DNA from: Rhizaria sp. SCN 62-66
Taxonomy: Eukaryota
Direction: 5' to 3'
NCBI GenBank assembly: GCA_001724265.1
Contig: MEDY01000361.1
Coordinates: 1 to 46,349 of the forward strand
Length of the DNA: 46,349 nucleotides
Position 1 is the first letter of the stretch; each line of letters starts with the position of its first letter. The position numbers were made by a program, and so were the translations under genes. A model generated the notes under the pieces. It did not search any database, was not told the origin of the DNA, and worked only from the letters and a program-made list of their open reading frames with translations. Shown here piece after piece: positions 2 through 37,648 of this stretch.

Positions 2-76
<75 letters not shown>
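2..76 (+). repeat. (CAG)25 microsatellite encoding poly-Gln, running off the window edge
   Basis: Perfect CAG repeat read directly. Confidence 0.95.
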
Positions 77-79
<3 letters not shown>

Positions 80-292
80 GAGCTAGAGCTAGACCTAGAG
101 ACAGAAGCGGAGCTCAAGCAGCACGACCAAGAGCTGGAGCAAGAGCAAGAGAATCTGTATTACGAGCAGCAGCAGCAGTTGCTTTTGTTGGAGCAGCAAC
201 AGCTGCAGCTGCAACAGCAGCAGTTGATGTTGCAGCAACAGCAGCAACAGTTGCTTTTGAAGCAACAGCAGCGCAAGCAGGAGATGTTACAA

Positions 293-324
<32 letters not shown>

Positions 325-12971: not shown

Positions 12972-13002
<31 letters not shown>

Positions 13003-13598: not shown

Positions 13599-13692
<94 letters not shown>

Positions 13693-16463: not shown

Positions 16464-16509
<46 letters not shown>

Positions 16510-19500
16510 GCTAGAACTCGAGCTAGAGTTGGTGCTTGCGGTTTTGACGCGCGTCGCAGGCGCGCTGATCTCCACGACATCGTCGTCGTCACTGCGCAGA
16601 GCTTCGTCAGGGCTCGCCGAGCTAGTATTATTAGCACGCACATTGCTCTTGTTGCTATTGCGGTCATCGTCGTCCATGTCCCTGTCATTGTCGACGTCGT
16701 TGCCAGCCGCAGCCTCGCTCTGGCTCTGGCTCAGGTAAATGGGTTCGGCCTGGCTCTGACCTGCGCTCTGGCTCAGACTATGAATGGCGCTCTGGCCCAG
16801 ACTCTGAGCGCGGCTCAAGCTCTGCGACTTGCTGGCACTCTTGTTGTTCGCACTCTTCGCCTTAGCAGCAGCAGCGGCAGCGGCGTGTGCAGCAGCGGCT
16901 GTCTTACCTTTGCCCTTGCCATTACTATTACTCCCATTCGCTTCCGCCGCCGCCGCAGCAGCAGCAGCAGCAACAGGAGCAGCAGTTTGACAGCGTGCGT
17001 GGCTGAGGCAGGCCCGCACGCTCTGCGACCCTTCGGTGTCGGCCACGGCCATTGCGGCCCCCACCACGGAGCCCGCGGCGGCTCGCGCCACCGCCGCGAG
17101 CATTGGCACGTGCACGCTGGACTTAAACAGCAGCGCGAGGAAGTGGCGGCGGCGCGCGGCGGCGGCGGCGGCGGCCGTGGCGGCCGCGTGGCGGGCCCGC
17201 GCGCGCCGCTCGGCTTCGGCGGCCTCTTCCTCCGCCGCGGCGGCCACGGCGGCGGCGGCCACAGCGGCGGCGGCCACGGCGGCGGGGGCGGCCGCAGTCG
17301 CAGTCGCGTCGGCGTTTCTACCGCTGCCGCTGCCGCTACTGCTGGAGCTGCTGCAGTGCGTCAGTGCGGGCAGCGGCAGCGAGTTCTGGCTGAAGCCGGC
17401 GCCGGTCGAGCCGCTGCCGCCACCAGTGGGATGCGAGTGATACTGCAGGGACGGAAGGTTGCGGCCGTGCTGGTGGTGACCGGACACCGCAGAGAGGGGC
17501 TCCAGCGGGGGCGGGGCGTCTGCGTCATCGTCGTCACCGAAAAAGCCGCCGCTGGCGACGACAGCGGTCGGAGTGAACCCGTCGAAACCAAGGCCAGCCG
17601 ATACAGTGCGAGAGGTTTTGGGGATGACGAGAACGAGGGCCTTGCTGGCGCTCTCAGGCGCGCTGGCGTTGCTTTGCGACCCCGCCTTCGCTGGCGAAAA
17701 CGCAAACGGATGCGCGTTGCCGCCGACCGCGTTGTTCGTATCCCCGGCGTTCGGGAGACTTACAAGTGCCGTCGCCGTCGCCGACGACGATGACGACAAG
17801 CGGACCGGTGATTCGTGGCTGCCGCGCGCGCTGCCGATCGCGCGGCTCGCCGCGCTGTCCGAGACGGTCACTACGCCCACAGTCACGACGTCATCGTCCC
17901 GCTCCCCGCGTTCTCCGCGTTCTCCCCGCGCGCGGTGCCGCGTCGGCGTCGCCGGCGCCGCGGAGGTCCGGATCGCGCCACCCTCCTTCTTCACGCGCAC
18001 CGCCGGGCCCGTGCCCGAGGCTGCGGCTGCGGCGGCTGCGGCGGCGGCGGCGGGCGAGATGGCGCCCGACTGCGTGTAGACGTTGTTGTGCGATGAGCAC
18101 ACTGGCCGAGGCTGGTTGGCGGCGGCGGTGGCAGCGGCGGCGGCGGCCGCGGCGGCAGCGGCCCGGTTGCTGACGCTGCCGTTGGCGTTCGGGCGAGGGT
18201 TGACAGGATTCGTGTTGGCGCCCTGGAAGGTGTTAGAGTTGACTGGCATGTTGGCGAAAGGGTCTTTATAGCCCGGGATACTGAGATCCGCCGGCAAGGG
18301 GAAGGCTAAGGGTGCTGGGGCGGGGGAAGTCAAATCGTATCCAGCAGTGAGACACATATTAGAGACTGACTGCGCGGCCAGGGCACTTAAGCGATCTAAG
18401 TACGCCTCGGGGTCTGAGGGGACACTTGCATTACTCGCAGCAGAGCTCGAACGAGAGCTGAGGCTACTGCTCGTCTTGCTCCTGTCAGCAACCGTGAGAA
18501 CTCCGTTTCCGATGACGCCACGAGCGTTACTGGCGACGGCGCTGCTGACGGCGCTGCTGACGGCGCTGCTGTTGCTGTAGACTCCGTTAGCGGTGCTGCC
18601 AGCGTTGACGGCAGCGATGGACTTGTAGAGCTCGCCCGCAGCTTGAGTCAGTCCCCCCGCGCCGGATTCAAGCACGAAGCTCGCCGCAGCCGCCGTCGCG
18701 ACCACGGCGGCGGCCGAGGTGGGTGTAAGTACCCACGCCACGAGGGCGTCTAAGTACCTCCGGGCCCTGGCGCGGGCGTTGAGCGCGGCGCCGAGCTCGA
18801 TCACAGTGTGGTAGGTAAAGACGCCCAGTTCGCGGGCCTCAGTCTCGCGAGCGTTCTGTGCCGCTTTCGGCGCGTTGCTACCGCCGCCGGGGGCGGTACT
18901 AAGACGGTGTAAGTACACGGTCGTGGCCGCAGTGCGCGCGGCAGAGATGATGACGTAGTCATTCGGATTGAGGCCGGCGTAGAGAAGAGACTTCTCAGGA
19001 TTCGCGCTCTTTTTGCTCTTCTTCGCACGAGCGACATCAGTGCCAGCGCCGTTCGTGGCAGCTGCAGCAGCTGTAGCAGCAGGAGTTGCGGTGACGTCGT
19101 CAGTCATCGCAACGCCTCCGGCACTCTCACTCTCAGCGCCTGCGGCAGAAGTCGGGCTACTGCTACTGCTGCTGCTGCTGTTGTTGTAGCCAGAGTCGAG
19201 GCCCAAAAAAGCCATCACGCGTAGTTCAACCTCCAAGTTCGCCTCTTTTTCACCGGCACTTACGCTTGCAGCAGCAGCAGTCGCATTCGCGGTGATCTTG
19301 CTCGCGTCGCCGCTATTCGCAGTCGTCAGGTCGACGCTGCTGCCGGCGTCGTTGCCGTGGCCACTCTTGCTGGCAATCATAGCCGCCTCCGCCGCCAGCA
19401 GCGCGCTGACCACGCCTTTGCCCCACAGCAGCGTCACCGCCGCGGCGGTCTCGGCCTCGGCCTGCCGCACCGCGGCGGCAGCCAGCGGCAGCAGCACCGA

Positions 19501-22500
19501 CAGCGGCAGCGGCAGCGGCAGAGAGGCGTCAGGGGCGATGGGCAAAGGACACATCAGCATCGGCAACTGATCGAGTATATCGCTCGCACTTGCATTCGCA
19601 CTCGTTTTATCACTGGCAATAGAGCTGCTGCTGCTCGGGGTTGAGTTCTTGTCAGCTTTGCCGTTGTTGGTCACACTAGCGCTATTGTTCATCCTAGTGA
19701 CGGAGTCTGACGAGAGCGGTTTGATCGCCTCGCGGGCCTCTGCTGGAGACATTTGGTACATTTCCTCGTAGCCCGGCGCACATGCAACTCCACTCACCAT
19801 ATCGACGACAATGCTGCTGTTGCTGCTGCCGACACGGGAGCTGGAGCGAGGGCTCGAAGCCTCAGAGCCACCAGACGCCTTGGCGCTCGGCCCATTTGTT
19901 CTCGCGCCAGCACTAGCGTGCGCGTGAGCGTTGCGCGAGGGATGCTGCTGGATGCGGACGACGGGCGCTGACAGCGGCGGCGGCGCCGTCAGAAACAGCG
20001 CCGGGATCGTCGGCGGCGGCAGCCACAGGTCAACGGGCTTGGTGTAGATCAACACGCCGGGCTTGCGCAGGAAGCCGGGTCGGACGCGCGGCACGGCGGC
20101 GCTCACATCGGCGTCCGCGTCAGTATGGGGGAGGCGGGGAACGCGGTCGCGGTCGCCGTCGGAGTCGGAGCCGGAGTCCGACTCGGTTTCAGACGACAGC
20201 AGCGCCGAGTGCGGACGCGAGCGCGAGCGTGCGTGTCCAGCCGCTGGCGCTGCCGCCGCCGCCGCAGCAGCAGTTGCGCTGCTGTCCGCAGAGGCGCCGG
20301 CGCCGGCGCCGTTGTAGGTCAGCTGCAGAGCTTTCTGCTGGTCGCGCTGCTGCAGTTTGAACAGCAGCCGCTGCCGCCGCCGCCGCTGCCGCCACTCGCT
20401 GTCGGAGTCGCTGTCACTGCCGACCGCCTCCCCGCCCGCCCGCGCCCGCGTCCGCGCGCGCGCCCGCGCGCGCGCTCCGGCGCTGTCGTCGCTGTCGTCA
20501 GCGATGCTCTCGCCGTCGTCGGAGTTGCTGCCGTTTCTGGAGTTGTTTTGTGAGTGCTTGTTCAGGTAGTGGGTGACGAGTTTGCTCGTGCCGGCAGCAC
20601 GCTCGCTCGCGCGGGTCTGCCGGCGGCGTAACTTGCGCGCGCGGCTTAGCTTCTGGCTCTCGTCGTCGCTGGCACCATCGCGGCCACGACGGCCACGTTC
20701 ACGGTCTCGCCTACGGTCACGGTCCCGGTCCCGGTCCCGGTCCCGGTCCCGGTCCCGGTCACGATGACGGTCACGGTAACCGTGTTTGTCTCTTTTGTCC
20801 TTCTTGCTTGCTTTGTCTTTCTTCTTGTGACTGTGAGCGGCAGAGTGACCGTGAGCAGAGCGACCGTGGGCTGAGCTCCTCTACACAGTCGTGCGAGACT
20901 GTGAATGTGACCGTGAGCGCGCCTACGACTGCGTGCCCGAGGAGGTGCTTCCGCGTCCCGCCTAACTGCTGCTTGCACCGTGGTTGCCGCCGTCATCGTC
21001 GTCGTCAAAGTCGTCTGTGATGATGCGGCGGCGGCGGACAACGGGGCCGACAACATCATCACCGTCGTCATTAGATTTTGCGCCAGCACCCGCACCGGCC
21101 CTGCTCTTGCTCTTGCTGCTGCTGCCGCTACGACCGCTTTTCTTCGACTTGCTCCGAGCACGAACAATGTCACTGTCGTCGTCATCATCGCCGCTGTTGT
21201 CGGAAAGCACACGCTTCAGCCTCCGCGAGCTGCCGCCACTGCTGTGCGTCTTCTGCCTCGCAGTCCTCGCCGTCGCCTTGCCCGTGGAGCCTTCTTCGTC
21301 AGAGACGAACTCGAAGCTGTCGGAGCTCGTCTCCGAGGAGCTGGCGCTGTCGCTCTCGCTGTCGCTGTAGCTGCTCGAGCCCGTCTCGCTGTCGTCGCTG
21401 CTGCTCGAGGTGCCGGACCGCGAGCCGTCGTGGTAATTATCGTCGCCGTCGCCGCCGTCGGAGACCACAAACCCTTCTAAGTCCTCCTCCTGGCGGGCCT
21501 GCGACAGGTCTAAATACCCCTTAGCTGCGCCACCCTTAGCCGACTTGGGGATCGCGCTCACCGTCACCTGCTGCTTCTTCTTCTGCGGCTGCGGGCTCAG
21601 CTGTTGCTGAGTTTTGATCTCCTTTTGCCGCTGCAACTGTGCAGTCGCGTGCGCCCAAAAACGGCCCGCGCGCTCGTTGCCGCCGCCGCTGCCACTGCCG
21701 CTGCCGCTGCTGAGGCTCCCGCTGTCGTTGGCGTTCCAAGCAGAGCCGGAGTGCGCGGTGGCTGCGTTCGCGTGAGCGTTGGAGTTGGAGTTAGCGTGGC
21801 TTGAGGAAGACGAGGATGCAGCAGCGACAGCGGCGTGCCAGGCGTTGTTGGCGGCTTGGTTCAAGTTGCTGCCGCTGCCACTGGCACTGACGGTAGGTTT
21901 GCTCTTAGCTTTACTGCTGCTCACGCTGGGGCCAGAGACAGTCGTAGCAGCGGTGTTAGATTTGATATTCCGACGATCGTCATCGCCGTTGTTGGAGTCG
22001 CGGTCGCGGTTGCGCAGCGGCTGCTTGCCGCCCGCGCTCTTGTTGCCGCGCTGCAGTTGCAACTGCGGCTGCAACAGCGACAGCGACAGCGACTCAGCGG
22101 CTGCGGCTGCATTGGGGTCAAGCTGCGTGTCGCTGTTGCGCCAGACGTCGCCGCCCATCACCACGCCCGTCACCCAGCCCGTCGCCGCGGGCGTGGGGCG
22201 GAAGAACGCACTCGAGCTCGAACTGGCGCTGCTGCTGGCGGAGGCGGCAACGGGAGGGCGGGTGGGGCTAGGGGGGTAGGAGGCGTAGGCTGTGGGCAGG
22301 ATAGGAGGGCCCGCGGGGGGCCGCGGCCGGTCGTCGTCGGTGTCGGTGCTCGAGGAGTCGGAGTCGGAGTCGGAGCTGGTGCTGGAGCTGCCAGAGCCGG
22401 AGCCGGAGCCGGAGCCAGAGCTGGAGTCAGAGCTGGTCGAGTCGGATTCGGTGTCCGCAGCGGCTGCAGCGGCGGCGGAGTTAGCTGTTCTGGCGCGGGG

Positions 22501-22629
22501 CGGCGTGCGTGCGGTTTTAGACGCGCGGGGCGTAACGAGCGTAACGTCAGAATCGTTGTCAGAATCGAGCGATATAGCGCGCGACGCGGGCAAAGTGCCA
22601 CGGCGCGGGGTCCTCGGCTGCGAGCTCAT
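9220..22629 (-). CDS. Giant (~4469 aa) low-complexity Ala/Ser/Asn-rich protein of unknown function with 3 in-frame TAG codons (20962-20964, 20923-20925, 20881-20883) read as sense
   Basis: ORFs 20962..22689 and 9220..20106 share one frame. Manual translation of the gap finds only three TAGs and coherent low-complexity coding (RDRDRD, KKKDK). First ATG at 22629 (MSSQPRTPRR); ends in TAA at 9220. No AT-rich intron in the gap. An acceptor-like T-tract+CAG near 22669 may indicate a 5' intron upstream. Confidence 0.75.
13600..13692 (-). repeat. (AAC)~31 microsatellite encoding poly-Asn in the giant gene
   Basis: Perfect GTT repeat on the + strand. Confidence 0.95.
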
Positions 22630-23117
22630 GGCGCCAAGGTCCGTGCGATTTAGAGGTAGTGCGTGCTGCTGGTACAAACAAAAACACAAAAATATAATAC
22701 AAAAGTCAGTATAAATTTACGAAAAGTAGATAAAAGCAGTAACAACGGTTGTTTGAAGCCACTGCAGTGTCATCTCAGTCAGCTGAATCGTGGCGCGCCA
22801 ACTCGCCACCGCTGCGAAAAAATGTGGCCACACTTTGCCGCCCTCAAGCATGATCTTATTCATTGATCTCACTGCACTTCTATCGTAAAATTGTGACAGC
22901 GCTTCGTAAATAAACGTGTATTATAACATTTTTACATGAGTATTTAATTATATCTCTTACAAGAGTTGTATATCTTGTCATCCCACTCCATTTCTCTCGG
23001 TCCCTCCCCGAGTGAAGATTTGGCTTTCGCGTTCTCTCGCTTGCTCCAACTCCCTCACTCAGTTCCCGCTTCGGTCTTCACGCCAGCCTGTGCCCGGCGC
23101 ACGGTGTGCGCTTTGCC
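22630..23117. promoter_or_regulatory. Short divergent (head-to-head) intergenic region, probable bidirectional promoter
   Basis: 488 bp with AT-rich stretches between divergent ATGs at 22629(-) and 23118(+). Contains TGGCGCGCCA (22791..22800) and TTTGCCGC (22834..22841), which resemble E2F sites. Confidence 0.45.
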
Positions 23118-26100
23118 ATGGCCGACTCTCCCGGCGGCGCTGACAGCGACCACCTGTTCTCCCAGTCGCTCTCGCAGTGCCCTGCCGACTTGTTCCTGGC
23201 TACGTGCAACGAAACCATCAGCAGCGGCTTCCGCGGCGGCATCGACAGCGACAGCGACGGGGGCGGTTGTGGCGACGACGCACACAGTATTGATGACCTT
23301 GGCAGCCAAGCCGACAGCGACGCAGGGCTCAGCGGGCTCGACCTCTCGCCCTATGCCCAAATGGCAGCTACCGCCGCCGCCGCCGCTGCCGCTGCCGCCG
23401 CCGCTGCCGCTGGAACAGCCGAGGCTGATGCTGATGCTGAGACGGAGGTTGATTCCTAGACTGACGACGGCGCGAGTCTGGGCTCTGACGCCCGCGTCGC
23501 CGTTGCCGGCCCCCCGCTGCCTCCAACTCGCAACAGCAACAGCTACAACAATCACAGCTTCACTCTAAGCAACAGCAGTTCTTTTATTGACATTGCTGGT
23601 GATGACGATAGCAGTCAGCTGCAGTCACCGTTGCAGTCTCAATCTCAATCGCAATTGCAATTGCAGTCGCAGTCTTCGTCTGTGATATTTGCGTTGCCAT
23701 CAAGCGATCGCAGTGATGCCCTCAGCGGCCCTAACATTAACCTTGTCGCAAACCCCGGTGGTCACCCCGCTGGTCACCCTGCTCGTCGCGACGCTCGCGG
23801 CGCCACTGGCATTGGCACGGGCACTGCCGATGGCAATATCCGAAGCCACGCTCGCGAGAGTACAAGTGGCTTTAACGGCTACTCCGACGGCTACGACGCA
23901 TCCGAGAGTCAAGCTCTCTTCACCCAGTCACAGGTGTTGTCTCAGTCTCAGCCACAGTCTCAGTTGCAGTCTCAGTCTCAGTTGCAGCTGCAGCCGCAGC
24001 CACAGCAATTGCAACGACAGCAGTTTGCGCCTCGGCAGTTCAAACGCAGTGCCTTTTCGGCTTTCAACACGAGCTACGACGCTAAGGCTCTCCTGGACGA
24101 CCTGAGCCACGATGACGACGAGCTGGAGCAAGAGCAGCAGCAGCGGCATCAGCAGTCTGTGGCCGAGTCGTATCTCGCAAAAGAGCACGGTTACTCTTCC
24201 TCCGGCGGCGAAGGCTCTTACAGCAACAGGGGCACATTTGCGAGCAGCCTCCGTCCATCGATGTTTGATGGCAGCGGGCATCACACGGACCTCGAGCTGA
24301 GCAACGATGGCGTTGGCATTACCAACCCTCGCGACGATGATGACGGCGACGACGACGAGAGTGATGTTATTACTCTCAGTGACACTGCGAGTGTCAACGA
24401 GATCACTTCGACACCGAAACCGACGAACAAGCGCGGCAGCATTGCGGTTCCTGTTGCTGCTACCGATGATGATGACAACGACAACAACAACCTGTTCAGT
24501 CAATCAACCGTTGATAGTAATGCTTTCTTCTTTGACAGGCTGAGGTCTGCCGCCACGAAGCAAGCTGCAGCGCCCGCGACCTCTCCTGCCCACGGTCACC
24601 CCGGCAAGGCCGCCTCTCCTGCCCACGGTCGCTCTGGCACCGCCGTGCGCGCGAATGACACTGCTGATGGAGGCTACGATGTGAGCGCGGGAGAGAAGTC
24701 TGCTCTTGCAAGTCCCCGCCAGGCTAATTTTAGCACGAGCAATCGCGTCCGTAGCGTTTTGGATTCAAGCCCATCGACCGCCGTTTCGGTGGCTTCAGTC
24801 AAAGACAAGATCATGCGTGACCTCACGAGTTCACGCAAGAGCAACAGCTCTACCAACAGCAATAGCTCGCGAAATGCGTTTACTGGCGGCGTTTTCGCCG
24901 CTGCTAACGATGATAACGACGAGATTGCGGTCGGAGACGACACCAAGTCAAGCCGTGCTAGGAGGCAGTTCAACTTTTCGAAGCTGCGGCGGCTTAACTT
25001 TCCCTCGTCTTACTTCGTGCGTCAACAAGAGATCCACGCGTTTCAAGAGCTAATTCTAGAGCAGCAGCAAAAGCGTGAGCAACAACAACAGCAACAACAA
25101 CAACGGCAGCAGCAGCCGAAGCAGCCGAAGCAGGAGCAAGAGGAAGAGGAAGAGGAAGACTCTCACGACCGAGAGCAAGAGCAAGAACGATCGCAGCTCC
25201 AGGCGCAGTTGCAGCTGAAGGTGTAGCAGCTGTGCCAGCGACAGAAGTTAAGCCGCGCCCAGCTGCTGCTGGTGTGCGAGCACGTGCGCGTGTTCGTCTC
25301 GAAGGCGTCGCTTCTGCAGTCGCTTACTCTTGTGCTTGCGCTCGCGAGCAACACGGTCAGTGCCGAACCAGAGGGCGTTCGCAGTGCGAGTAGTCTTCTT
25401 GACGACATTGACGGCATCACTGTGACACTGCAGGTGCCGCTTGAAGCAACAACGGCGGCAGCAGCAGCAAAGGGGGAGACATCAGTATCAGCGACAAGGA
25501 GTGAGCAAAAACAACACGAGTCGAAGTTGTCGGCGTCAATTGTTACCTTAACTCTGACTCAATGGCTGTGCTTTGTGGCGAAAACTATTGCAACTAGCAT
25601 ATCAACAACAACAACATCAACAGCTAGCTCAGAAAGTAAAAGCAGCAGCGGTTCTTCAAGCTCGGTGACTCATTATGCAAATTTCCTTGGTTTAAGCGTT
25701 AATTCAAGCGTGCAAGAGCTGATCTCTCACTTTACGCAGTCGTTGTCATCGCATCTAAGCCCTTCTTTAGAGCTTAGCCAGCAGAACACCGGCGGAGACA
25801 CTGTTCTCAGCACGCTCTCTCTGCTGCACGCGTTGACCGTGCTGCCCTGCTCCGTTCTCGGCCTTGTCGCGGCGCTAGCGCTGGCGTCCCGGCCATTCCC
25901 GTTCCCCCAAGCTCCCCGTTACACGAGCGCGATCCCGAGCGCAAGCGCAACCGGCAGCAAAATCAGCTCTCGCAAGAACACGAAGGCTCACTTTAGTAGC
26001 AGCGGCAGCGACATGAGTGGTTGCGACAACGACGACGACGATGACCGCGGATCCGCTCCCGCGTCCGTGTCTGTGCTGTCATTCTTCCCCTCCGTCGCGG

Positions 26101-28325
26101 CAGAGCCGCCGTTCTCGCAGCTGCAGCCCGCGCTGCTGGCGCTGCCGCATGCTGCGCCCGTGGCGGCGCCCTGGACGCGGCACTACGACCTGCAGGCGTG
26201 GCTGTACAGGCTGCTGATGCAACTCGCCGTTTCCGACCAGCAGGGCGAGCTGCACGACGACATGACGTGGGCGCGCACTCACGTCGCCGCAAACGCTGCC
26301 ACTGGCACCCCCAGCCGCAACAACAGCAGCAGCAGCAGCAGTGGCGCTGGTGGTGGCGGCGGCAGCGCAAAGGGCGCTTAGATCCGGGCGTTAAGGACCG
26401 ATGTTGGCCAATCGCCGTTTCGGCTTCACTTAATCACCGGCAGCACGAGCAGCAACAGCAATTGCATTAGCAAGAGCAGTAGCAGCAGTGTTAATGGCGG
26501 ACCTGGTCCTAGTGGCGGTGGTGCGAACGGCGAGTCAACCCTGAAGCGACAGCCGCTGCCGGCTGTGTACGTGGGCAGTTTCGACGAAGCGTACCGGCTG
26601 CGCGCTCTAAGGGGGTACTTAGACGTCGAGAAAGACTTACGACGCCAATTTTAGCAAAGCTCCGACTTCGGGATGGCTGAGTCTGATGTAGGTAAGAGCG
26701 AGACTGAAACAGCGAATGTAAGTAGCTCCGCGTTGTGTGTAAGTGCGTTCACAGGAGTTGCTGGCGCGGTCAGCGTAAGTCCTGAGTGCGATGTAAGTGA
26801 GCGTTTGTGCGATATTATTCTCCACTACTCGACATTTCACTTTAAACAGCCGCCAAACAGCGCTTGCACCGACTCAAACATAACTGTGAACAGCAACAGC
26901 AGCAGCATCAGAAGCAACAGCAGCAATTTTGCGAGCGATAACACGACACAAGGTGATACTTTTTGCAGTCGCCTTAAGTACTTGGACTCAACGGCGTTGC
27001 CTAACCACGCCGATTTCAAGTACTTAAAGAAGCTCACCCGCGAGCTCGCTTACCGCAGCCCAGGACTATCAAGGATGAGCGAGTACGCGCTTTCCGTCGA
27101 GGGTTACGAGCATTTGCAGCCGATCCCGACGCCGAGCTCCACTGCCGCCGCATACTCCGGGTTTTCAGACGCAAGCTCTCTCTCTAGCTCTCTCTTGTCT
27201 GGTTCAGCACGTGGCGGCTTCGCTGCTGCTTCTGTCCCTTTCCCCCCTGCCGAGCCCACCGTTGGCGCCAACGCCACCGTCGCCGACACCGTCTTCCCCT
27301 CCACTAGCCGGGCCTTTGGCTCCCCGGCGCAGGCCCCGCCGCCGACGCGTCTCGCGGCGGCCGCGGCCCTGCTCGTTATGCTCTCGCGCGCGCTTGCGGG
27401 GCCGCCGCCGGGGGTGACCATGTGCTGGACCCCCGGGCGGCCGCTCACGTTCTCAGCGGTTAAGGGCGGGGCGGCAAGCAAGAGCAAGAGTGCAAGTGCC
27501 AGGTTTTTCGCGAATGTGACCAAGAGTGCGAGCTCGTCCAGTGCCAGTGCTCACCTGAGCGCTCCTGCTCTCAACGCGAGTGCGAGTCTCTCTCTGGCGA
27601 GCATGACTGGGGCAACCCCTGCCCCATCTGCTGCGGTCAAAGACGAGGCTGAGTGCGTCGGCGGGGACGATCTGACGCACGCGACCGCGTTGCTGCTCAA
27701 GTACTGCGCGTTTGACGCGCTCACAAACACTGCGCTCGGGCTCAACTTTCCAAACTTACTCGCGAAGGCACTTAAATCGACAACCGCAGGAACATCTTCG
27801 AAGTCAAGGCCGAATAGTAACGCGAAGGCAGTCATTCCAAGCTCTGGCCAGCAGATGGCTGTTGCTAATGTCTATGAGTTCAACAGTCAGAGCAACAATG
27901 CCGCAAGCAACGTCCGCAGTAAGGGCAACTCTAGTAAGAATAGTAGGAGTTCTTTGAAAGCGATCAATAGTGATACTGCCCACGCCAGTGCTAACATTGC
28001 GAGGTTTTTCACCACAGTCAGGCGTGATACGCAGCCACTAACACAAGAAGCAAAAAAAACTGTGCCAATGCTAGCTGACGCAATATCCGCTTCTGATAGC
28101 GTCGCTGCTGCTACTGGCTTGGACGACAAGAAAGCGATTCTCGACTTTTCGTTGACCCTGTCACAGTAGCAGTCACTATCCTTGGCCCAGCCACCGCTAA
28201 AGTCGCAGCATTCTGGACTCTCACTCTCCCAGTCGCTGTCCCAGTCGCTGTCCCAGTCGCTGTCCCAGTCGCGTTCGTCGCAGGGCCGGGGCCGGCGGCA
28301 ACAAAAGAAGGACCAGCAACAACAG

Positions 28326-28357
<32 letters not shown>

Positions 28358-30797
28358 GCAGTAGCAACAGCAGCTAAAGGAGAGCCAGGAGCAGCAGCAA
28401 TGCAGTCGGCTCACGCGGCGTAAGTCTGCTGCTCTTGCATCTGCCGCTCACGATGCTGCGGCTGCGGCCGACGAGGCTCATGGTCACTCTGCTCACGGTC
28501 TTGGCCGCAGCCCAAGTCACACGCAAACTCAACAAGGAAGTTATAGTCCTAATAACGCGAGGCAGTCCCACGCGGACGCGAGGGTGACTGGCTCTCAGTG
28601 CAGCTCTGGAGCCATTAAAAAGACATTTAGTCTCGTTGATTTGGGCGATGACTCTGGCTCTGGCTATGACGACAGCAAGAACACTGACGAGAACAACATT
28701 GTCACAAATCCGGATGTCAAGCTGTCGCAGTCCCAGCCACATACGCAACCGCAGACATTCGCACAGCTGCAGCGTTTATTCCAGTCGCAAGCACGGTCAT
28801 CCTTGCAGTCCGAGAACGAGCATCAGCCCAACGCTGACGCTCTGACTGATGTCGATAACGACGACACGTTTGCGTCACAGCCGCCTCCTTTACAGCCGCT
28901 CACACAACACCAACAGCAGCGTCAGGAGCAAGCGCTAGACCAAGACCAGGAGCGAAACGAAGAGGAGTCGAAGCTGCATCAGCGTCGAACACAGCAACGG
29001 CTTCAAAAGCAGCTGCAGCTGACTCTGGCGCAGCAGTAGTCGCAACTGCTCTCGCAGTCCCAGTCGCTCCCGCAGTCCCGGCCGCAGTCGCAGTCTATGT
29101 TGCGATCACTGCTGCAGTCGCAGTCTCAGCTGCGGTTGCACTCGCAGTCGCCGTCGCAGTCTCAGCTGCAGTCTCAGTTGCAGTCGCAGGGGGCAGGGTT
29201 GGTGACGCCTCGAGTGAAGCGCCGTCGGCCCGCGGTGCCTCCCGGCAGACGCATCAATGCTCGCAACGCTGCGACGCGTCGCGGCCGCGGCAGTGTTTAC
29301 CGTGACGATGACGTCGACGACGACGACGACAGCGATGATGACGGCGCAGACACTCAGCTTAGTCAAACGCCGGTCACCGGGCGTAAGAACAGCAAGAGTT
29401 CGAAGGCGAAGCGAAAGACCACAGAAAAGGCGACGGCACCATCTTCACCAGCTGGAACATCAGCGCCAGTTGTTGCAACTCCTGCTTCCCAAACTGCCGC
29501 TGCTGATGCCGCTGCTGGTGCTGAAGCAGCGAATGCCAACGTCGGTGCGAGCGAGACGCCGCCAGCCACTAAACGGCGCCAGACGAAAGTCAAGCCGCCT
29601 ACGCCGAACCACGGCGCGTTGCTGAAGTTTCTCACGCATACGCCGTCGCACACGGCAGTCGCAGCGTTTGCAGCAACTCCGCACGCAAGGGAAGACATGA
29701 GCGACTGCGACAGCGGCAGCCAGAGCACTCACTGTGCTGCTGTGACCCCGAGCGCTGCACGTGTCGCCGCGACTGCGAGTTAGCGTGTTCCTCGTGGCGG
29801 TGCTGCTGCGAACGACTCCGGCGCGCGCTATAGCAATCACTCGAACTCGTACACGTGTAGTCAGAGCTCACAGCTGCAGTCCCAGTCCCAGCAAGGACCT
29901 ATCTTCAAACTCAGCCGCCAAAATGCTCTGACGAACATGACGCATTCGGCTAATCCGACGTCTAAGAAGCTCAACAGCAGCAGCGACAAGAGCGATAACA
30001 TTCGGAGCTTTGAAGATGACGGTGATTTTGACAATGACTACGACGACTACGACGGGAACACAGTCACTCACAACAACGCTTCTGCGAGCTCTGGTCAAAA
30101 TGACAGCAGCAGTAACAACAATAACAAGGGCATTAACTCCCAATCCCAGTTGCAATCACAGTCACAGGTGCGCTCACAGCCACAATCCCAGTTTGAACAA
30201 TCGCAAGCAGTATTCCACCAAGCGTCATCGCTCGACCTAGGCTTGTTCTATAACTTTGCCAACGACACCAAAGACTCGCACTCTCTGGGAGTCGTCGCCT
30301 CACGCTCCAGCTCGCTTCCCGCTGCGGCTTTAGACGTCAGCTCTCGCCCCGGCACAGAATCTAGGTCTGTCTCCAACTCTATTGCAGCTGCACCGTCGTC
30401 GAATCACGGCCAGCATCAGCAACAACTGCAGCAAAAGTTGCAATCCCAGGAGCAGCAACATCAATAGCAGAGCTTTGGCGGCGGCCGTATTTTGCGGCGA
30501 ACTGTGGCGTTTTGCATTTCAGACAGCCAGGAACAGCAGCAGCATCAACAGGGGCACATCCAGGAAAATCGCGATCACGTCATCGTTCCGTGCGATGCTT
30601 CAACTGTCTTGCGCGTGTCGAGTGGCCCCAGGAGTAGCACTGTCCCCCGCGTGAGTCCGGGCACAAACGCAGCCGCGGATACTCATAGCAGTGTTGCGAC
30701 AAGTTCGAGCGTACCGCATATTACGAGTGATGCCTTAAGTCGATGCCAGTCGATGGCTTTATTCCCTTTCACCCCGAGAGACAACACGAAGCAGTGA
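23118..30797 (+). CDS. ~2559-aa Ser-Gln (SQ/TQ)-rich low-complexity protein of unknown function with 9 in-frame TAG codons read as sense
   Basis: ORFs 23106..23459, 23631..25226, 25272..26381, 26673..28169, 28182..28364, 28584..29039, 29097..29783, 29937..30467 and 30492..30797 all lie in one frame. They are separated only by TAG at 23457, 25224, 26379, 26652, 28167, 28362, 29037, 29781 and 30465. ATG at 23118 (MADSPGG); final TGA at 30795-30797 is followed by AT-rich DNA. Confidence 0.8.
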
Positions 30798-31789
30798 TGT
30801 GAGATAAGTCGAGATTTTTTGTGTAACTTACGTTTCCTAGTCCATCGATTTGCACAGAATCGTTTCTTTTACATAATTTCAACAATACAGTTTGCTGTAC
30901 TCTTTCATATCGGAGACGCAGTTCAAGTTGTTAAGCGAAGTGAGGTGAGTGGGTGACAACAATGGATGTTAGTCAATGTATTCGAGTGATATCCATACTC
31001 ATATGATCAGTATGGTATCTAAAAAGTAATAGCCATCGGGTGTCCTTTGTGTGAATAAAGGGGCACTCAGCGCGACGCCTGGAGCAATAGTCCCAGGAGG
31101 AGACCACACTCACAAACGCACCACGCGTATGCTCGCACATTGAAACACACAGCATCCACAAAAATATGAGCAGGTACTGTCACACCTGTAAGATCCACAA
31201 ATAGTACATGATACGAATGGTTGAAGTAATGTTACATCAGAAAAAAATCAGTGGAGATGATGAAAAGAATATACTGCAACAGGTTTCAATTCGTGTTCTT
31301 AACATAAAACAAAAAGGCAGTTTCAGAAAAAGACGCATAACAAGTGTAGCTTAGGTTACACGTCGTGAACGTATACAGGGTCGAATAAAGGAAAATCAAG
31401 TCTAGCATAGTCAATAAGAAAATAGTTTCAAAGCACAGATATTGTTACAAGTACACAGCAACACACCAGTTGCTTATACCGTGGAGCAAAGTAAGAATTG
31501 GAAACTCAACAGCATTAACGACAGACCCACATAGGATCGAAGAGCGTGCTTGCGTGTCATTTAGATGTCATGATTTGAGTTCAGGGTTTTGAAAAAGTTG
31601 CGATAACAACTATTACGCCAAGTATTGTCATAATAATTGAATGATAATAGCCTCTTTCGTGTACTTGTCAGGTCATACTGACTCGTTAAAGAGAAATCAT
31701 TGTGCAAGTGCACCCAGTCTCAATCCTGCGATTGTGATTGATAACTTGCTGGTCTTAGTTTTCCATTACTTCGATTTCGGTCGTTTCAC

Positions 31790-34700
31790 TTACGCAAAGA
31801 GCACAGCAAGCATCATGAGCACAGCCGCGAACAAGACCGACACCGTTGCCGTGGCCGCCGAGTTGTCGGGGCCAGAGGCGCAGAGGTTTTTAGTGCAGAT
31901 ATTGGTGGTGCAGTGGCTGTCCTTATTGCACTTCTGACCGGGCTTGCAGGCGGCGCACGTGGACTCCTCGGTGTTGCCGCAGTCGACATCAGTCTCGCCG
32001 TTGTCCAGAACGCCGTCCTCGCAAAGCGCGGAAATGGTGGAAGAGCCGGACGAGGAGACGGACTCAAGCGAGTAGCGCTTCGACGACAGAACGTTCTATG
32101 ATAGAGGATAGAAATGAGCCGAGCATTTGCGTGGACATACACACAGTGCGCGAGGGATAAACATAAACACAGGATAAGTTTCAATAAATGAGCACGTTAA
32201 AATAAAGTGAAAAGTGAATTGGATAAATTAGCAAGATTAATACTCTTTCTTGCAGCTACAGAAAATACTAGTGGAAGCTGGTGCACAAGCGTACCTGGTA
32301 GTTGTCACTCTCGAGACTCTTTGCCAGGGCCTCAGCGTCAGACGAGGACACGTCCTCGTTGGCGGCGATACCAGTGGCAGTGACCTCGACGTAGACGTCT
32401 GACTCAGACTCGCGCACGTTGGAGCGGGCCATCGTGTTGACAACACCAGCATTCTTGGGGGCATCACCATCGTGGTAGATCAACTAAAAAATGAGTCAAG
32501 AAAAGGTATTGAGACACACGTGAGATACATCACGAAAGTTAAAACACTAATGCAAGGATAAAGAGTTGCTCTACAAATTGTTGACTAAGATTCACAAAAC
32601 GATAGAAAAGAGTGGGTCCTCCGCGTAAAACTGTAGAAAATTGTTGAATATTAATATACTTACCTGGCGAACAATCTTGAAGCCGGTGAAGTTCGCGCTG
32701 CCCTTGGTGGTCAGGTGACCGACGAGCTTGTCGAGCATCTTGGAGCCTAAGTGCTCCTCCTTGGACGCGCCGGACGAGGCGAGCAGGTCCTTGAAGGTGA
32801 TGAGGAACAGGTGGCCGGCGCGCTCCACGGGCGGGTTGGGCAGCGGGTTGTTGTCCAGGTACACGGGGCCGCACTGCGCGAGCTTGGGGTTGCCGGCAAC
32901 CGAGAGCACGAGCGACATGCCATTGAGCGCGTTGACCGACGCGAGGGTGTTGGCGGGGACCACGGCGGCCTCCTGCAGGACGGTGACGCCGCTCCCGACC
33001 TTTTTGCCGTCAGCAATGCCGACAAGCTTGAACAGGTCGCCGTTGCTCGCGGCGCGGGGGCCGGCGATGGCGACATTGCACGTGTCGCCGAGGCTGTTGG
33101 CCGCGACGGAGTACTTGTGGAAGCCGAACGAGACGGTCTCATCAGTGTTAATGTTGTTGACGACACTGACGTTGTAGATGATGTTGGGGCGGTACGGAGC
33201 GACGTTGGCGTCGGTGAGGAACACGGTGAGGGCCTGCTCGGAGTACGTCGGCGCCGTGATGGTGACCATGCGCGACACAGTCGTGTCGGTGGACTCGCCG
33301 TCGTAGCCAGGCCGGATCGTGCCGCAGCCGAAGAAGCCGGTGGTGGGGGCCAGGTTGTGGATGGCAATGGAACGAGCAACAATGTTGATCTCCTCAGGCT
33401 TGAGGGAGATCTTGCTGTCGACGTAGTGGACGGCAATGAAGCCCTTAGTCATGTCCGTGGACTGGCTGAGCACCTGCTTGAGGTTGCCGAGACGGGACGC
33501 AAGGTCGCCGAACTCGTTCACACCGGCGCCAACCACGAAAGTGGGGTTGTAGTGGCTACCGATGGCGCTGCAGACGGCGAGAGGAGGGGTCGCGGCACTC
33601 GTAGCTGCGCCAACCGAGTGCACGTGCCAGGCGAGGCCAGTGGAGTCGGCGGCGCCAAGCAGGGTGAGGTTGCCGCTGATGCCGAGGAACACGTTGACAT
33701 CGCTGGAGCTGGTGCGCTGGTCGAACTGGAGGTCGATGGTGATCTTGCCGTTGATGTCGGCGCTGGTCACGTATACACGCGAGCGCGCCGAGAGCAGGTT
33801 GGCCTTGGGAAGGACGTCGACCGCCGCGGCGCCGGAGGGCTGGATGGTCTTGCACTGGGTCGTGTGCTGGGGGCTGACGGTCGAGGGGCGGAAGTAAGCG
33901 GTGCGGCCGTAGAGCGCCTTGACATCGTAGTCGAGCGAGGTGGAGGCCGTCGACACGGACGCGGACTGGGTTGCGAACACGGACTGCTGGCCGGAGACGC
34001 CGTCGAAGGGGTTGAACACGTCTACCGGAGTCGTGGCCGTGCACTCGCCGTCGCCGGTGTTGTAGCGCAGGAACGACACGGTCCCCGCGGTGCCGTCGGA
34101 GCCGGTGTACAGGGAGCGGCCGACGAACGTGCGTGGGCGACGGGAGACAAGGGAGACGTAGCTGGAGAGCACGATGCTGCCGGTGACGTCGGCGGACTGG
34201 TAGCTCAGCACGGCGCGGTCGTTCATGGTGCCGATGGGGGCGCAGGTAAGCACGACCTTCTTGCCGTACTGGACGATGTACAGCACAAACGTCTTGCCGA
34301 CGACGGAGCTCTCGCCCGAGAGCTCAATCTTGGAATCGACGAACGAACGGAAGCGCGATTGCTGTAGTTGACAATACATGTAAATAATTGACATAGGGGA
34401 ATATACGAAAATGAAAAAAATTAATGAAAAACATACACGGTCAATGACTCGATTTTGAAGACTCATTTCGTCCTTATTTGTTGTCATATATGTCTTAGGA
34501 GACAATATCACCCAATGAAATTATAATGAAGATTATCGATGAGATTTAAAGTCGCATCTAAATTTACGTACCTCGGCGTTCTTCTCGTACAGGCCGTGGC
34601 GGGCGTAGAAATTACCGACGATGTCAGCGTCCTTAGAAGCCTGAGTGGGGTTAAACAGCGTCAGATCGGTGTCGAAGTTGCACGACTTGTCCGCGGGGAT

Positions 34701-37648
34701 GGCGTTGGTGATGATGGCAGCGGTGACGTCGAAGACAACGTTGGTCGAATCAGCGACGATGTCGGTGTAGCCGGGGAAGACGTTGCTGGAGACGAGCACG
34801 CCGTTCTCGACCTTCTGCATTGAGACCACACCGGTGGCGATGCCCGTCGCAACGGCGTCACCGGTAAACTCGCGCGCAGTCTCTTTACCATCGAGGCGAA
34901 TCAAGTCGTTGCAGTGGACGAGGGTGCCGTCGTCCTTAGTGATGTACATCGAGCGGCCCTGGAGCGCGACGTCGGGCACAAAGCCCAGGTCGATGAACTT
35001 GTTGCTGGTGGCGAGCGTCTGGAAGCGGAAGATGGGACCGTTAAGGAAGTTCTCAGGCGCAACAGTCTTAGCGGCACCCGTGTTGCATTTCGTGCGGCCG
35101 ATGAAGAGCGAGTTGCCGATCATACCAGGGCACGTGGCGAAGTCGAAGTCGAACTGTAGAACACTGGTGGTGGCGCCTGGGATCGTGGTGATGCGCGGGG
35201 TCCAGATAGTCGCCGTTGAGTTGCACGTGTTGTCCGTGGTGGTAATGCTGAAGTCCTTAGGAACGAGCACGGAGGTCGACTTGGGGGTGACGTCAAAGCC
35301 GGGCACGATGTCACTGCACGCGCGACGCGGGTTGCTCGCTGCGGCGTCGGACTTATGCACGACGATAGAGCGGCCGACAATGCCGCGGGCGCCGTAGACG
35401 TTCTGGATAAGGTTGTTGTCGAGGTACGAAACAGAACCACCGTTGGAAGAGAGAATGAGCTTGCCGAAGCGGCCCGAGAGGTTGCCGACCTCGTCCGCGG
35501 ACGACTGGCCCTTAAACGTCGGGTCCCAGTGGTTACCAGTGACGCCAGGGCCGCAGGCAACCTGGTCAGTGACGCCGCCGAACTCGTGGATGTGCCAGAG
35601 CGCGCCGTTGGGAAACTCGGAAGCGTTCAGGGCCTTGATCGAGGTCGTAATCTTGACGATCGTGTTGGCGACCTGCTGGAACGTGATGGTGCCCTTGACG
35701 TAGGCGTTGTCAAGTGTGACAACGTGCTTCTCCGCATTGTTGTCGTACGTGGTGGTGGCAATACCGTCAGCGTTCGCCCAGTCAGCGCACACAGGGGACT
35801 TGCCATCGGCGATGAACACAAGGCTGCGGCCCGCGAGGTCGACGACGGACTGGGCGATCATAGTGGAGATGGTGTACTCGCCGGCAGCAAGGGTGTTAGC
35901 GTTGAGCTTGTTGCCAATAGCCTTGATCGCGGACGAGGAGCAGGGCGCGTCGCCGATGTACAGGTTGGAGCCAATCAAAGGGCTCTCGGGGTTAACGGAG
36001 AACTTGGTCTCGAACAGGGACAGGTCAGTCATGGGCGCCTGCGAGATGCGCGGGGCAACATAAAAGCCAACGTTCATCGTTGCGTCGGAGAACGAAGCGG
36101 ACGCGAACTTGCTCGTGCGGGGGTCCGTGGTGTCAAGAATGCGGGGGCAGGAGACGTAGGTCTTGTCCGCGCCAGCGGGCTTTACAGTCGTAACGAGAGG
36201 GCGGCCCAAGTAGGAGTCAGCGTCGTAAGGGTTGGTGGCCTTGCGGTCGATGAGATAGTTGAGGCCGACGCGGAGGGTGCCGTGACGGGCGTACAGGCCG
36301 TTCTTGGCGCTGGACCAGAGGGCGCCGGCATTAGAGCACGAGGTGCTGGTAAAAGCACCATTCTCGTAAATGTCCCATTCGACGTTGTCGCCGTAGTAGT
36401 CCGCGTTGATCAAGGAGATATTCGTGGTAATCATCGTCACCGCCTCGGAAAGAGGCTGCACCATGCAATGAAACGAGTATAAAAGTCGAGTTTAAAAGTT
36501 GTTAATGATTTCGAATAAGCACGCAAATTCTTACGGCAGTCGATTTAGGAAGTAAACATAATTAAATGTGCAAATTGTGGTTACCATTTCGCGATCGATA
36601 TCTCGTCTAAGTGGGAGTGTAAAGAGACACGTACGGTGAAGGTGACGGTGCCGATGAGGTCGGTGCCCGTAAACGTCGCCTCAACCGACTTCTTATCGAA
36701 CATACGGCGCCCAGTAGGCAAGCCAGTGGCCGGGTCCAAGTTGTAGCATGCAATCTTGAAGGTGTCTCCGCCCAGGATGGTGAAGATAGAGCGCTCACCG
36801 TAGTAGACGACCTGCTTGAGGCCAATGGAGACGAAGATATTGTTATCCCCGGCCTTGGCAGTAAAAACAGGAGTTGTGGTGAGCTTAGCAAACTCGGTGA
36901 TAGTGGCACCGGCGTCAGGACATGCGCTCTTGCCGAAGAAAAAGTCCTTACCAACAAACTGAGTGTTCTCGGCGACGTTGAACTGAGCGAGGAAGTAGGA
37001 CTCGTCACTGAGCTCAGGCTGCGCAATGCGGGGGTTGATCGTCACACTCGCGATACCGAACTCCTTAGCGTCCGTGAGGTCTGCCTCGAAGAGCTCCATG
37101 GGGTAGAGCGAGGTCTCAGCAGTGATGGTAGCGCACAGCACAGGATGGTCAGGAGAGTTGGCATCAGCGAGGATGATGGAGCGGCCGGCGATACCAGTAG
37201 AGCCGGAGAGAGAAAGATACAGGTCAGATGCCGTAATTCCATCAATCATGATGGGACCGTGGCGCGCAAGGTTGCCCACGGCTTGAGTCGAGTCAGCGTC
37301 CTGGAAAGTCGGGTTCCAGAACGGGCCGGTGACATCGACACCGCAGCCGCTCGCACCAGACCCGGTCGCGCCAGAGGCGAGGGTGCTCATCTCGTGGATG
37401 TATGCATTGAATCCGTTCGGAAACAAACGGTCAAATGCAGCGTTGGCGGTGACCGTAGCCTTGTACGTGACAGCGGTCGACGTCGCGCCATCCGCAGGGG
37501 GCGTAAACGTAAGCACAGCGTTGAAGGAGTCAGCAGAGGAATTAGAGACGAAAGTCGCGGTGAGCACCTGCTGCGCCGCGATCGCGGAGGAAACAAGAAA
37601 CGCGCATGCAAGTAGCGCGAAGAGCTTCGCGGCGGATGCAAACCGCAT
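31790..37648 (-). CDS. Secreted, probably GPI-anchored copper-only superoxide dismutase repeat protein, copy A (~1696 aa); exons 36635..37648, 34572..36455, 32664..34361, 32295..32483, 31790..32095
   Basis: Signal peptide MRFASAAKLFALLACAFLVSSAIA. SOD1-fold motifs WHIHE..C..GNHWDP..EVGNLSGRFG..GIVGRSIVVH..RRAC and WHVH..C..GSHYNP..EFGDLASRLG..ARSIAIH..GC. Cys-rich GETDVDCG module and hydrophobic C-terminus ending in TAA. GT-AG junctions preserve frame and match the paralog. Confidence 0.88.
32096..32294 (-). other. Intron 4 of SOD-repeat gene A (199 nt, phase 0)
   Basis: CAG|GTACGC donor, TCATAG| acceptor leading in frame into the Cys-rich/GPI exon. Confidence 0.8.
32484..32663 (-). other. 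Intron 3 of SOD-repeat gene A (180 nt, phase 0)
   Basis: CAG|GTAAGT donor, TTTTTTAG| acceptor. Confidence 0.8.
34362..34571 (-). other. Intron 2 of SOD-repeat gene A (210 nt, phase 0)
   Basis: GAG|GTACGT donor, CTACAG|CAA acceptor, junction KNAE|QSR conserved with paralog. Confidence 0.85.
36456..36634 (-). other. Intron 1 of SOD-repeat gene A (179 nt, phase 0)
   Basis: ACC|GTACGT donor, TGCAG| acceptor, AT-rich, same position in paralog. Confidence 0.75.

Follow-up and report, generated by a model that had tools for sequence, protein, structure and literature searches.

In the material covered by PMC5304391 and PMC11687900, nuclear code changes that separate UAG from UAA, a split long thought to be constrained, are documented in a few ciliates and in two lineages outside that group; what the initial annotation says about how rare such UAG-only changes are is consistent with these two papers. 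As described by Panek et al. 2017 (PMC5304391), Iotanema spirale (Fornicata) reads UAG as Gln and retains UAA and UGA as stops, a code formally like NCBI table 15; UAG makes up ~8% of its Gln codons and is aligned with conserved Gln residues. Section 6 of the same paper describes the rhizarian exLh (Sainouroidea), in which UAG stands for Leu at 82 of 86 hyperconserved sites, the stops are UAA (56) and UGA (15), and 384 UAGs are found in 71 genes, with strongly uneven use between gene classes. In the UAG-only ciliates described in 2024 (PMC11687900), 78 to 91% of genes carry UAG, which accounts for 6.5 to 32% of the codons for the respective residue, and UAA is the preferred stop; some phyllopharyngean TARA MAGs described there use UAG for Leu. 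Code-15 phages, e.g., the crAss-like ones (PMC9523058), translate TAG as Gln and stop at TAA and TGA.

In the window (the whole stretch of DNA analyzed here, 46,349 nucleotides), UAG is very probably read as an amino acid, with UAA and UGA serving as stops, a well-supported reading that is drawn from two orphan low-complexity genes on a single 46-kb contig. We favor it because the interruptions of these genes are exclusively TAGs, for which a nonsense-mutation model gives a P of only 1e-3 to 4e-3, are located in GC-rich surroundings, are bridged in eight of 12 cases by contigs from other studies, are accompanied in gene C by mostly synonymous strain SNPs, and have no counterpart among the gene ends.

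Stop codons in the six genes of the window

Merging of ten open reading frame (ORF) pieces resulted in six gene models.

2-5881, forward strand: gene A, 5' end off the window; 1,959 codons, including 279 Gln codons and no TAG; ends in TAA
6884-8863, forward strand: gene B; 659 codons, no TAG; ends in TAA
9220-22629, reverse strand: gene C, an orphan of 4,469 codons with three in-frame TAGs (codons 556, 569, and 583); terminal TAA at 9220-9222
23118-30797, forward strand: gene D, a low-complexity (S/Q/A-rich) orphan; 2,559 codons, nine of them in-frame TAGs, before the final TGA
30795-30797, forward strand: terminal TGA of gene D, followed by an AT-rich spacer
31790-37648, reverse strand: multi-exon SOD-repeat gene with Sod_Cu matches (ORF pieces G, F, and E plus small 3' exons); ends in TAA
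38880-44716, reverse strand: another multi-exon SOD-repeat gene, in tandem with the first and made up of ORF pieces J, I, and H plus small 3' exons; ends in TAA

The window thus contains 12 in-frame TAGs, nine in gene D and three in gene C, so that two of the six genes are affected, and no internal TAA or TGA in 12,823 ORF codons. Each gene end is followed by an AT-rich spacer; five of the six ends are TAA (genes A, B, and C and both SOD-repeat genes), one is TGA (gene D), and none is TAG. These gene-end counts are the ones that the initial annotation had given, and they stand after the merging of the ORF pieces; its proposal that UAA and UGA are retained as stops is likewise borne out within the window, the TGA end being a single case. 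TAG represents 0.233 of all stop trinucleotides in the window.

The in-frame TAGs of gene D, all on the forward strand, are as follows.

23457-23459: codon 114, TCC TAG ACT; reached by an X3 piece only 4 letters from the end of that piece, and not counted as bridged
25224-25226: codon 703, GTG TAG CAG; X3 piece 25196-26307 covers 28 letters on one side only, and the site is not counted as bridged
26379-26381: codon 1088, GCT TAG ATC; close to the end of X3 piece 26371-28256, and not counted as bridged
26652-26654: codon 1179, TTT TAG CAA; bridged by X3, X4, and X6 pieces with 0 differences
28167-28169: codon 1684, CAG TAG CAG; bridged by X3 piece 26371-28256
28362-28364: codon 1749, CAG TAG CAA within a poly-Gln run; outside all listed bridging pieces
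29037-29039: codon 1974, CAG TAG TCG; bridged by X3 and X4 pieces
29781-29783: codon 2222, AGT TAG CGT; bridged by X3 and X4 pieces
30465-30467: codon 2450, CAA TAG CAG; X3 pieces, X4 pieces, and X8 piece 30347-30721, a contig of a poly(A)-RNA library, all bridge the site with 0 differences

Translation of positions 23118 to 30797 yields exactly nine internal stops, all of them TAG, with no TAA or TGA, in a single frame from end to end, with all ten segments in frame together and no frameshifts. Retranslation therefore confirmed the initial description of this 7.7-kb frame, and the flanking codons quoted in it (CAG-TAG-CAG, CAG-TAG-CAA, CAG-TAG-TCG, CAA-TAG-CAG, GTG-TAG-CAG, TTT-TAG-CAA, TCC-TAG, and AGT-TAG) are all correct. 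In its two remaining frames, this segment contains 54 and 105 TAA and TGA codons, and a chance origin of the open frame is excluded, because 50 to 100 such codons would be expected versus none observed. AT-rich spacers flank gene D (22651 to 23050 and 30701 to 31800), and none is found inside it. Genes C and D matched no Pfam families, and a search for gene D homologues among 1.84 billion representatives returned none, except for its own fragments, which stop at TAG. Because standard-code gene callers cut genes of the C and D type at each TAG, so that the database holds only TAG-ended fragments, eukaryotic bins of such metagenomes are likely to be misannotated.

The three in-frame TAGs of gene C are additional to the nine reported initially and form a tight cluster.

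20881-20964, reverse strand: TAG cluster of gene C, consisting of 20962-20964, 20923-20925, and 20881-20883 (first bases 20964, 20925, and 20883)

All three fall within 82 nt of the 13.4-kb gene, which is not predicted by uniform use of the codon. They are bridged with 0 differences by X3 piece 20731-21489, and X8 piece 20902-21202 from the poly(A)-RNA library bridges the TAG at 20962-20964 and reaches the one at 20923-20925. The 1,080 nt past the cluster (20883 to 19800) contain no in-frame ATG or stop and have a GC content of 0.56 to 0.82.

Splicing, editing, assembly, and gene decay

The possibility that in-frame introns or U-to-C editing eliminate or alter the TAGs ahead of translation, or that the TAGs are assembly errors, has very little to commend it, even though the host has introns and a 5'-splice-like GTACGT precedes the TAG at 26652 by 85 nt. 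The ten segments of gene D share one frame, and the 50 nt flanking each of the 12 TAGs on both sides have a GC content of 0.51 to 0.67, compared with 0.30 to 0.46 in the inferred introns and exon gaps, in agreement with the initial observation that no AT-rich introns lie near the TAGs. Contigs assembled in other studies from runs other than the source bridge eight of the 12 TAGs without a single difference. As for RNA, for which the initial annotation had proposed a check, contigs from a poly(A)-selected RNA library cross two of the 12 TAGs unspliced and unedited; these are contigs rather than raw reads, and they may derive from DNA present in the library.

A second explanation that retains the standard code holds that genes C and D have broken down or are in decay, and that their TAGs are ordinary nonsense mutations of CAG. 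Indeed, in these Gln-rich genes, a stop would most commonly arise by mutation of CAG to TAG, and a nonsense-mutation model predicts that TAG would make up 0.56 to 0.68 of the new stops in these two genes; moreover, the TAGs are concentrated in one gene, gene A has none, and neither gene C nor gene D has homologues that would prove its function. However, under the same model, given the codon content, the probability that 12 of 12 stops are TAG is only ~1e-3 to 4e-3, and gene D shows no frameshift and no TAA, despite having 77 CAA codons. In gene C, 10 of 16 strain SNPs are synonymous (P of 0.001 to 0.007), with the bias seen on both sides of the TAG cluster, including three of the four SNPs in the 1,080 nt past it. 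The sole indel seen, a 12-letter gap in one X4 contig, is a multiple of three, the TAGs are identical in the contigs of other studies, and gene D lacks the dinucleotide signature of the RIP type. We therefore consider decay very unlikely; the GC profile and the synonymous-biased SNPs support the coding status of the TAG-bearing frames.

Thus, the bridging contigs, the GC contrast, the missing RIP signature, the 12 of 12 TAGs, and the mostly synonymous SNPs argue against errors in the assembly, introns, mutation of the RIP type, and simple decay into pseudogenes.

The likely residue at UAG and the uneven use of the codon

Given the sense reading, the residue at UAG is most likely Gln, an assignment that we regard as somewhat better than even, followed by Leu. 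Gln adjoins six of the nine TAGs in gene D, whereas it adjoins Gln codons at a rate of 0.34 and Leu codons at a rate of 0.18, so that six of nine has a P of 0.047 at the Gln rate and 0.0016 at the Leu rate. The calibrated Q-minus-L context score of -2.5 lies 1.6 standard deviations from the expectation for Gln and 2.5 from that for Leu; the respective densities are 0.0115 if the true residue is Gln and 0.0023 if it is Leu, and Glu is excluded. This favors Gln over Leu by ~5:1, with a calibration trained on the same genes that it scores. The commonest Gln codon, CAG, is a single transition away from TAG, which would also speak for Gln. Nevertheless, a sense UAG that stands for Leu, with precedents in the rhizarian exLh (PMC5304391, section 6) and in some of the phyllopharyngean ciliate MAGs described in PMC11687900, or else for some other residue, deserves consideration as a minority reading. 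Leu tops the raw likelihood of the context within three residues on either side (3.6, versus 1.1 for Gln and -1.1 for Arg) and is a frequent interrupter of the Gln runs in gene A. The only conserved domain in the window, Sod_Cu, contains no TAG. Accordingly, the part of the initial proposal of UAG = Gln that holds within the window is the sense reading (12 in-frame TAGs in two of the six genes); Gln itself is only modestly favored by context, and the raw score puts Leu first.

Of the 779 Gln-type codons, 12 (1.5%) are TAG; the share is 3.8% in gene D and zero in gene A, where ~4 TAGs would be expected at the pooled 1.5% (Poisson P of ~0.01). Such low and very uneven use, confined to two of six genes, with TAG at none of the 279 Gln-type codons of gene A and at three closely spaced sites in gene C, could also be accommodated by an ambiguous UAG at which many genes still end but which is subject to readthrough in genes C and D, either efficiently, by a suppressor tRNA, or only partially. 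The base following TAG is C in six of the 12 cases, and C after a stop codon favors readthrough. Ambiguity of stop and sense has been described in other eukaryotes, such as Condylostoma, karyorelicts, and Blastocrithidia (UAA). On the other hand, none of the six genes ends in TAG, although in so small a sample this is weak evidence, and hardly any full-length product of gene D would be made if each of its nine TAGs in turn were read through only partially, yet the 7.3 kb past its first TAG are free of TAA and TGA. We judge an ambiguous UAG to be improbable.

The likely host and comparison with known codes

The two SOD-repeat genes encode GPI-type Cu-SOD repeats and are interrupted by AT-rich gaps of 85 to 230 nt, which we read as introns. 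The gene at 31790-37648 is colinear in tblastn with protein L001, including the C-terminal Cys-rich exon at 32083 to 31796, and has GTACGT/GTAAGT sites at 36634, 34571, and 32663. Homology to an uninterrupted relative supports the introns, and the gene shows that the host has introns of the spliceosomal type. Relatives were found in neither the viral nor the prokaryote collections. The window probably stems from the nucleus of a eukaryote that is uncultured, GC-rich, and equipped with such introns and that recurs in wastewater and bioreactor metagenomes, a judgment made jointly with that on the sense reading of UAG. On balance, the best explanation of the data, which we hold to be probable, is a sense UAG, with Gln as the most likely residue, used at low and uneven frequency in a GC-rich, intron-bearing eukaryote.

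[quoted passage not shown] Its simplest source would be one anticodon change in tRNA-Gln(CUG), and it might act alongside an eRF1 with poor recognition of UAG; the 46-kb window itself contains no tRNA genes, no Rfam matches, and no eRF1 gene. The low, uneven use of UAG would fit a weakly decoded or recently captured codon, and UAG might be tolerated in long, disordered, weakly biased genes. It is conceivable, although we offer this only tentatively, that an independent capture of UAG has taken place in a eukaryote that belongs to none of the ciliates, fornicates, or sainouroid rhizarians and that this capture is at an early stage, with the codon at ~1.5% of Gln-type codons, absent from most genes, and found mainly in giant disordered proteins. 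If so, the locus would offer a natural snapshot of the takeover of a stop codon while UAA and UGA remain stops, and the very low, gene-specific use could show what early or weakly decoded reassignment looks like. [quoted passage not shown]

Among the known systems, code-15 phages share with the window a sense TAG alongside TAA and TGA stops, but the window differs from them in its eukaryote-type introns, giant low-complexity proteins, contigs in the poly(A)-RNA library, and lack of a relative in the viral collections. As in the UAG-only ciliates, UAG alone appears to be reassigned and UAA is the preferred stop; in contrast to them, UAG use is only 1.5% and limited to two of six genes. Furthermore, a GC content of 59% (by base counts) and a load of six genes in 46 kb set the contig apart from ciliate macronuclear DNA. 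As in exLh, UAG would be the only stop to have changed, UAA and UGA are left as stops, and UAG is used unevenly from gene to gene; however, UAG use is much denser in exLh, and the context here leans toward Gln rather than Leu. The GPI-type Cu-SOD repeat genes and the AT-rich gaps of 85 to 230 nt provide no link to the fornicates. UAG use (1.5%, 12 of 779) in only two orphan genes and an assignment to Gln that comes from context alone set the locus apart from Iotanema, but, just as in that organism, UAG would be the only reassigned stop, UAA is the main terminator, UGA also serves as a stop, and Gln is the favored residue.

Frames interrupted only by TAG

On translation, gene D (positions 23118-30797, plus strand) forms a single frame of 2,559 codons that ends in TGA and contains exactly nine internal stops, each of them TAG (at 23457, 25224, 26379, 26652, 28167, 28362, 29037, 29781, and 30465). 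The initial annotation, which proposed that UAG encodes Gln with UAA and UGA as stops, had described this nine-TAG frame as free of TAA and TGA; translation bears this out, adding site 26379 to those that it had located. The other two frames of gene D carry 54 and 105 TAA and TGA codons, so the absence of both from a 7.7-kb frame is not due to chance. The observation can be extended to gene C (9220-22629, minus strand), which, with TAG taken as sense, is one frame of 4,469 codons with a terminal TAA and the same pattern, i.e., three internal TAGs (codons 556, 569, and 583). Under the standard code, gene C would instead be read as two ORFs, one of 555 codons that stops at a TAG and one of 3,526 codons that starts from the ATG at 19800. 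The 1,080 nt between these pieces stay in frame and have a GC content of 0.56 to 0.82, compared with less than 0.45 in all spacers of the window; since this stretch has no ATG, stop, or AT-rich spacer, two separate genes were rejected as an explanation. Over all ORF pieces (12,823 codons), the internal stops comprise 12 TAGs, no TAA, and no TGA.

Placement of the TAGs within introns was also rejected, as the ten segments of gene D all lie in one frame. The flanking GC content of 0.51 to 0.67, against 0.30 to 0.46 in the introns of the window, agrees with the earlier statement that no AT-rich intron lies near these sites. If all 12 TAGs were new nonsense mutations in decaying genes, codon content would predict 56 to 68% TAG among them, making 12 of 12 improbable (P of 1e-3 to 4e-3), and the absence of frameshifts would be left unexplained; the low and uneven use of TAG keeps this explanation only remotely alive. 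RIP-like C-to-T mutation was rejected, as gene D lacks a RIP-type dinucleotide signature by the thresholds applied (TpA/ApT, 0.81; [CpA+TpG]/[ApC+GpT], 1.27). Partial readthrough at successive TAGs is argued against by their number, as nine such events in a row would leave almost no full-length gene D product.

The three TAGs of gene C form a cluster (20881-20964, minus strand) within 28 of its 4,469 codons, and two of them share the hexamer TAGGCG. Gene C also contains long homopolymer runs (poly-Asn, poly-Ala, and poly-Gln) and RD/DR repeats, and recurring HGHS/AHGH motifs are common to the giant proteins of genes A, C, and D. No Pfam families were found in genes A, B, C, and D. Among 1.84 billion representative sequences, residues 690 to 1700 of gene D matched only two fragments of gene D itself, which gene callers using the standard code had truncated at TAG.

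Gene models, introns, and host

The ten long ORFs of the window collapse to six genes, including two tandem genes for SOD-repeat proteins, whose inferred structure is as follows.

38880-44716, minus strand: one SOD-repeat gene, ORF pieces J, I, and H, followed by two small exons
31790-37648, minus strand: the other SOD-repeat gene, ORF pieces G, F, and E, followed by two small exons
39590-39786, 39190-39381, 34488-34573, 36465-36636, 43507-43725, and 32433-32665, minus strand: inferred introns (exon gaps) with splice-like motifs and low GC content

Each SOD-repeat protein combines three Cu/Zn-SOD-like domains with a C-terminal Cys-rich module that has a hydrophobic tail, an arrangement that we take to resemble the extracellular GPI-anchored Cu-only SOD-repeat proteins. 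The signal-peptide-like start of these proteins suggests that they are secreted. Both genes align colinearly with a 1,337-residue protein that is encoded without interruption on a distant 4.6-kb contig from another metagenome (L001, positions 301-4314, plus strand; 29% identity), the sole locus recovered by the metagenome scan. Its ORF of 1,337 codons (57% GC) terminates in TAA and lacks in-frame TAGs, and the last 95 residues of the protein match the separate downstream exons 39170-38886 and 32083-31796. The exon gaps of the SOD-repeat genes, which are about 85 to 230 nt long with a GC content of 0.30 to 0.46 versus about 0.6 in the exons, start with GTACGT or GTAAGT, contain CTAAC/CTAAT-like branch motifs, and have YAG ends; one inferred 3' splice site is itself TAG. 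From the exon colinearity with L001 and these splice-like motifs, it follows that the window is nuclear DNA of a eukaryote and has introns of the spliceosomal type.

The scans of viral and prokaryotic genomes yielded no relatives; the contig of the window itself did not turn up in these or the metagenome collection, which provided no additional DNA from this organism. Homologues of ORF piece F were limited to its own record and one paralogue within the window, and the protein-atlas matches were to Sod_Cu clusters only, from mixed eukaryotes that point to no usable taxon. The window contains no tRNA genes, Rfam matches, or taxonomic markers. The sequencing runs that contain 88 to 100% of the words sampled from gene D are bioreactor, wastewater, and activated-sludge metagenomes from three studies; runs X5, X7, and X9 to X13, with small or zero shares, were left out of the habitat and strain evidence and of the contig alignment.

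TAG sites and coding constraint in independent contigs

Contigs from two DNA runs of other studies (X3 and X4), a doubtful RNA run (X6), and a polyA-selected RNA run (X8) were aligned to positions 19501-31500, and a TAG was considered bridged if a contig piece extended at least 31 letters on both sides of it. By this measure, X3 bridges all three TAGs of gene C and five in gene D, X4 bridges four in gene D, X6 bridges one, and X8 bridges two (20962-20964 and 30465-30467), so that 8 of the 12 TAGs are bridged by runs other than the source. The sites at 23457, 25224, and 26379 are touched only near the ends of pieces and were not counted, and 28362 has no cover in the listed pieces. No alternative letters appear at any TAG in the aligned runs, a missing entry not being proof of identity; these independent contigs argue against an assembly error. 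At both sites that X8 bridges, its contigs follow the DNA colinearly, which suggests that the TAGs there are neither spliced out nor edited, with the proviso that this library may carry over DNA. Over the spacer that separates the divergently oriented genes C and D (22701-23100), X8 has zero depth and both DNA runs provide cover; with contigs this sparse, the gap hints only weakly that X8 represents transcripts.

The runs differ from the window at 17 single letters, 11 of which are synonymous in the proposed frames. Synonymous changes account for 10 of the 16 differences in gene C, against an expected 25 to 30% (P of 0.001 to 0.007), and for 6 of 9 (P of 0.009 to 0.024) after exclusion of seven clustered SNPs that come from a single low-depth contig. 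At 19933-20042, a stretch that can belong to a coding sequence only when translation continues past the TAG cluster, three of four SNPs are synonymous. The sole indel, a 12-letter gap in one X4 contig (21204-22258), lies in low-complexity coding sequence and is an in-frame length polymorphism of gene C.

Assigned residue, UAG use, and known codes

The merged gene models uphold the earlier count of gene ends: TAA terminates genes A, B, C, and both SOD-repeat genes, TGA terminates gene D, and TAG terminates none of the six. At this locus, where TAG is the one stop triplet found within the frames (12 times), there is good support for the proposal that reads UAG as sense and keeps UAA and UGA as stops; it is very likely correct, if the ambiguous variant, in which UAG terminates some genes and is sense in others, is included. 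That variant is kept alive by the sparse, uneven use of TAG and by the sampling of only six gene ends; ambiguous stop/sense codes are on record in other eukaryotes.

No conserved protein in the window bears a TAG, and the residue was judged from context alone. TAG is one transition away from CAG. Gln adjoins six of the nine TAGs in gene D and none of the three in gene C, and codons of known meaning have Gln neighbors at rates of 0.34 (Gln), 0.26 (Glu), 0.21 (Ser), and 0.18 (Leu). The raw context likelihood over three residues on either side puts Leu first (3.6), followed by Gln (1.1) and Arg (-1.1). After calibration against resampled real codons whose meaning is known, the Gln-minus-Leu score agrees with Gln about five times as well as with Leu, and the Gln-minus-Glu score excludes Glu; as these very genes served to train the model, Gln is a lean rather than a result. 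The Gln assignment of the initial annotation is thus favored by the neighbor test and the calibrated score but not by the raw one. Given a sense reading, UAG would rather probably encode Gln, and Leu would be an unlikely choice.

TAG makes up 12 of 779 Gln-type codons (1.5%) overall, 3.8% in gene D, 1.9% in gene C, and none of 279 in gene A. The last gene (2-5881, plus strand) is extremely Gln rich, with long CAG/CAA runs, in contrast to gene D with its 9 TAGs per 229 Gln codons. The TAGs of gene C span 82 nt of 13.4 kb (about 1e-4 under rough uniform placement). Such uneven use would be consistent with poor decoding of the codon or with its recent capture.

A TAG=Gln code is reported for phages (PMC9523058), and passages of a 2026 giant-virus catalogue refer to alternative codes without anything that matches this contig. 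The literature searched contained no account of a UAG change in a GC-rich eukaryote from wastewater. According to PMC5304391, tRNA-Gln(CUG) can acquire a CUA anticodon through a single change, UAG accounts for about 8% of the codons for Gln in Iotanema spirale, and its use in the rhizarian exLh is uneven between gene classes; according to PMC11687900, phyllopharyngean ciliates use UAG for 6.5 to 32% of the codons of the residue, in 78 to 91% of genes. Published UAG-only codes thus have a far higher UAG share than the window. The features of such a code found here are internal UAG and the use of UAA and UGA as stops, and the window is probably a further case of this already known kind of variant, possibly, as the initial annotation proposed, of independent origin. 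The same pattern, with UAG as sense, UAA as the main stop, and UGA as a stop, is seen in I. spirale (UAG=Gln) and exLh (UAG=Leu) (PMC5304391) and in several phyllopharyngean ciliates (PMC11687900).
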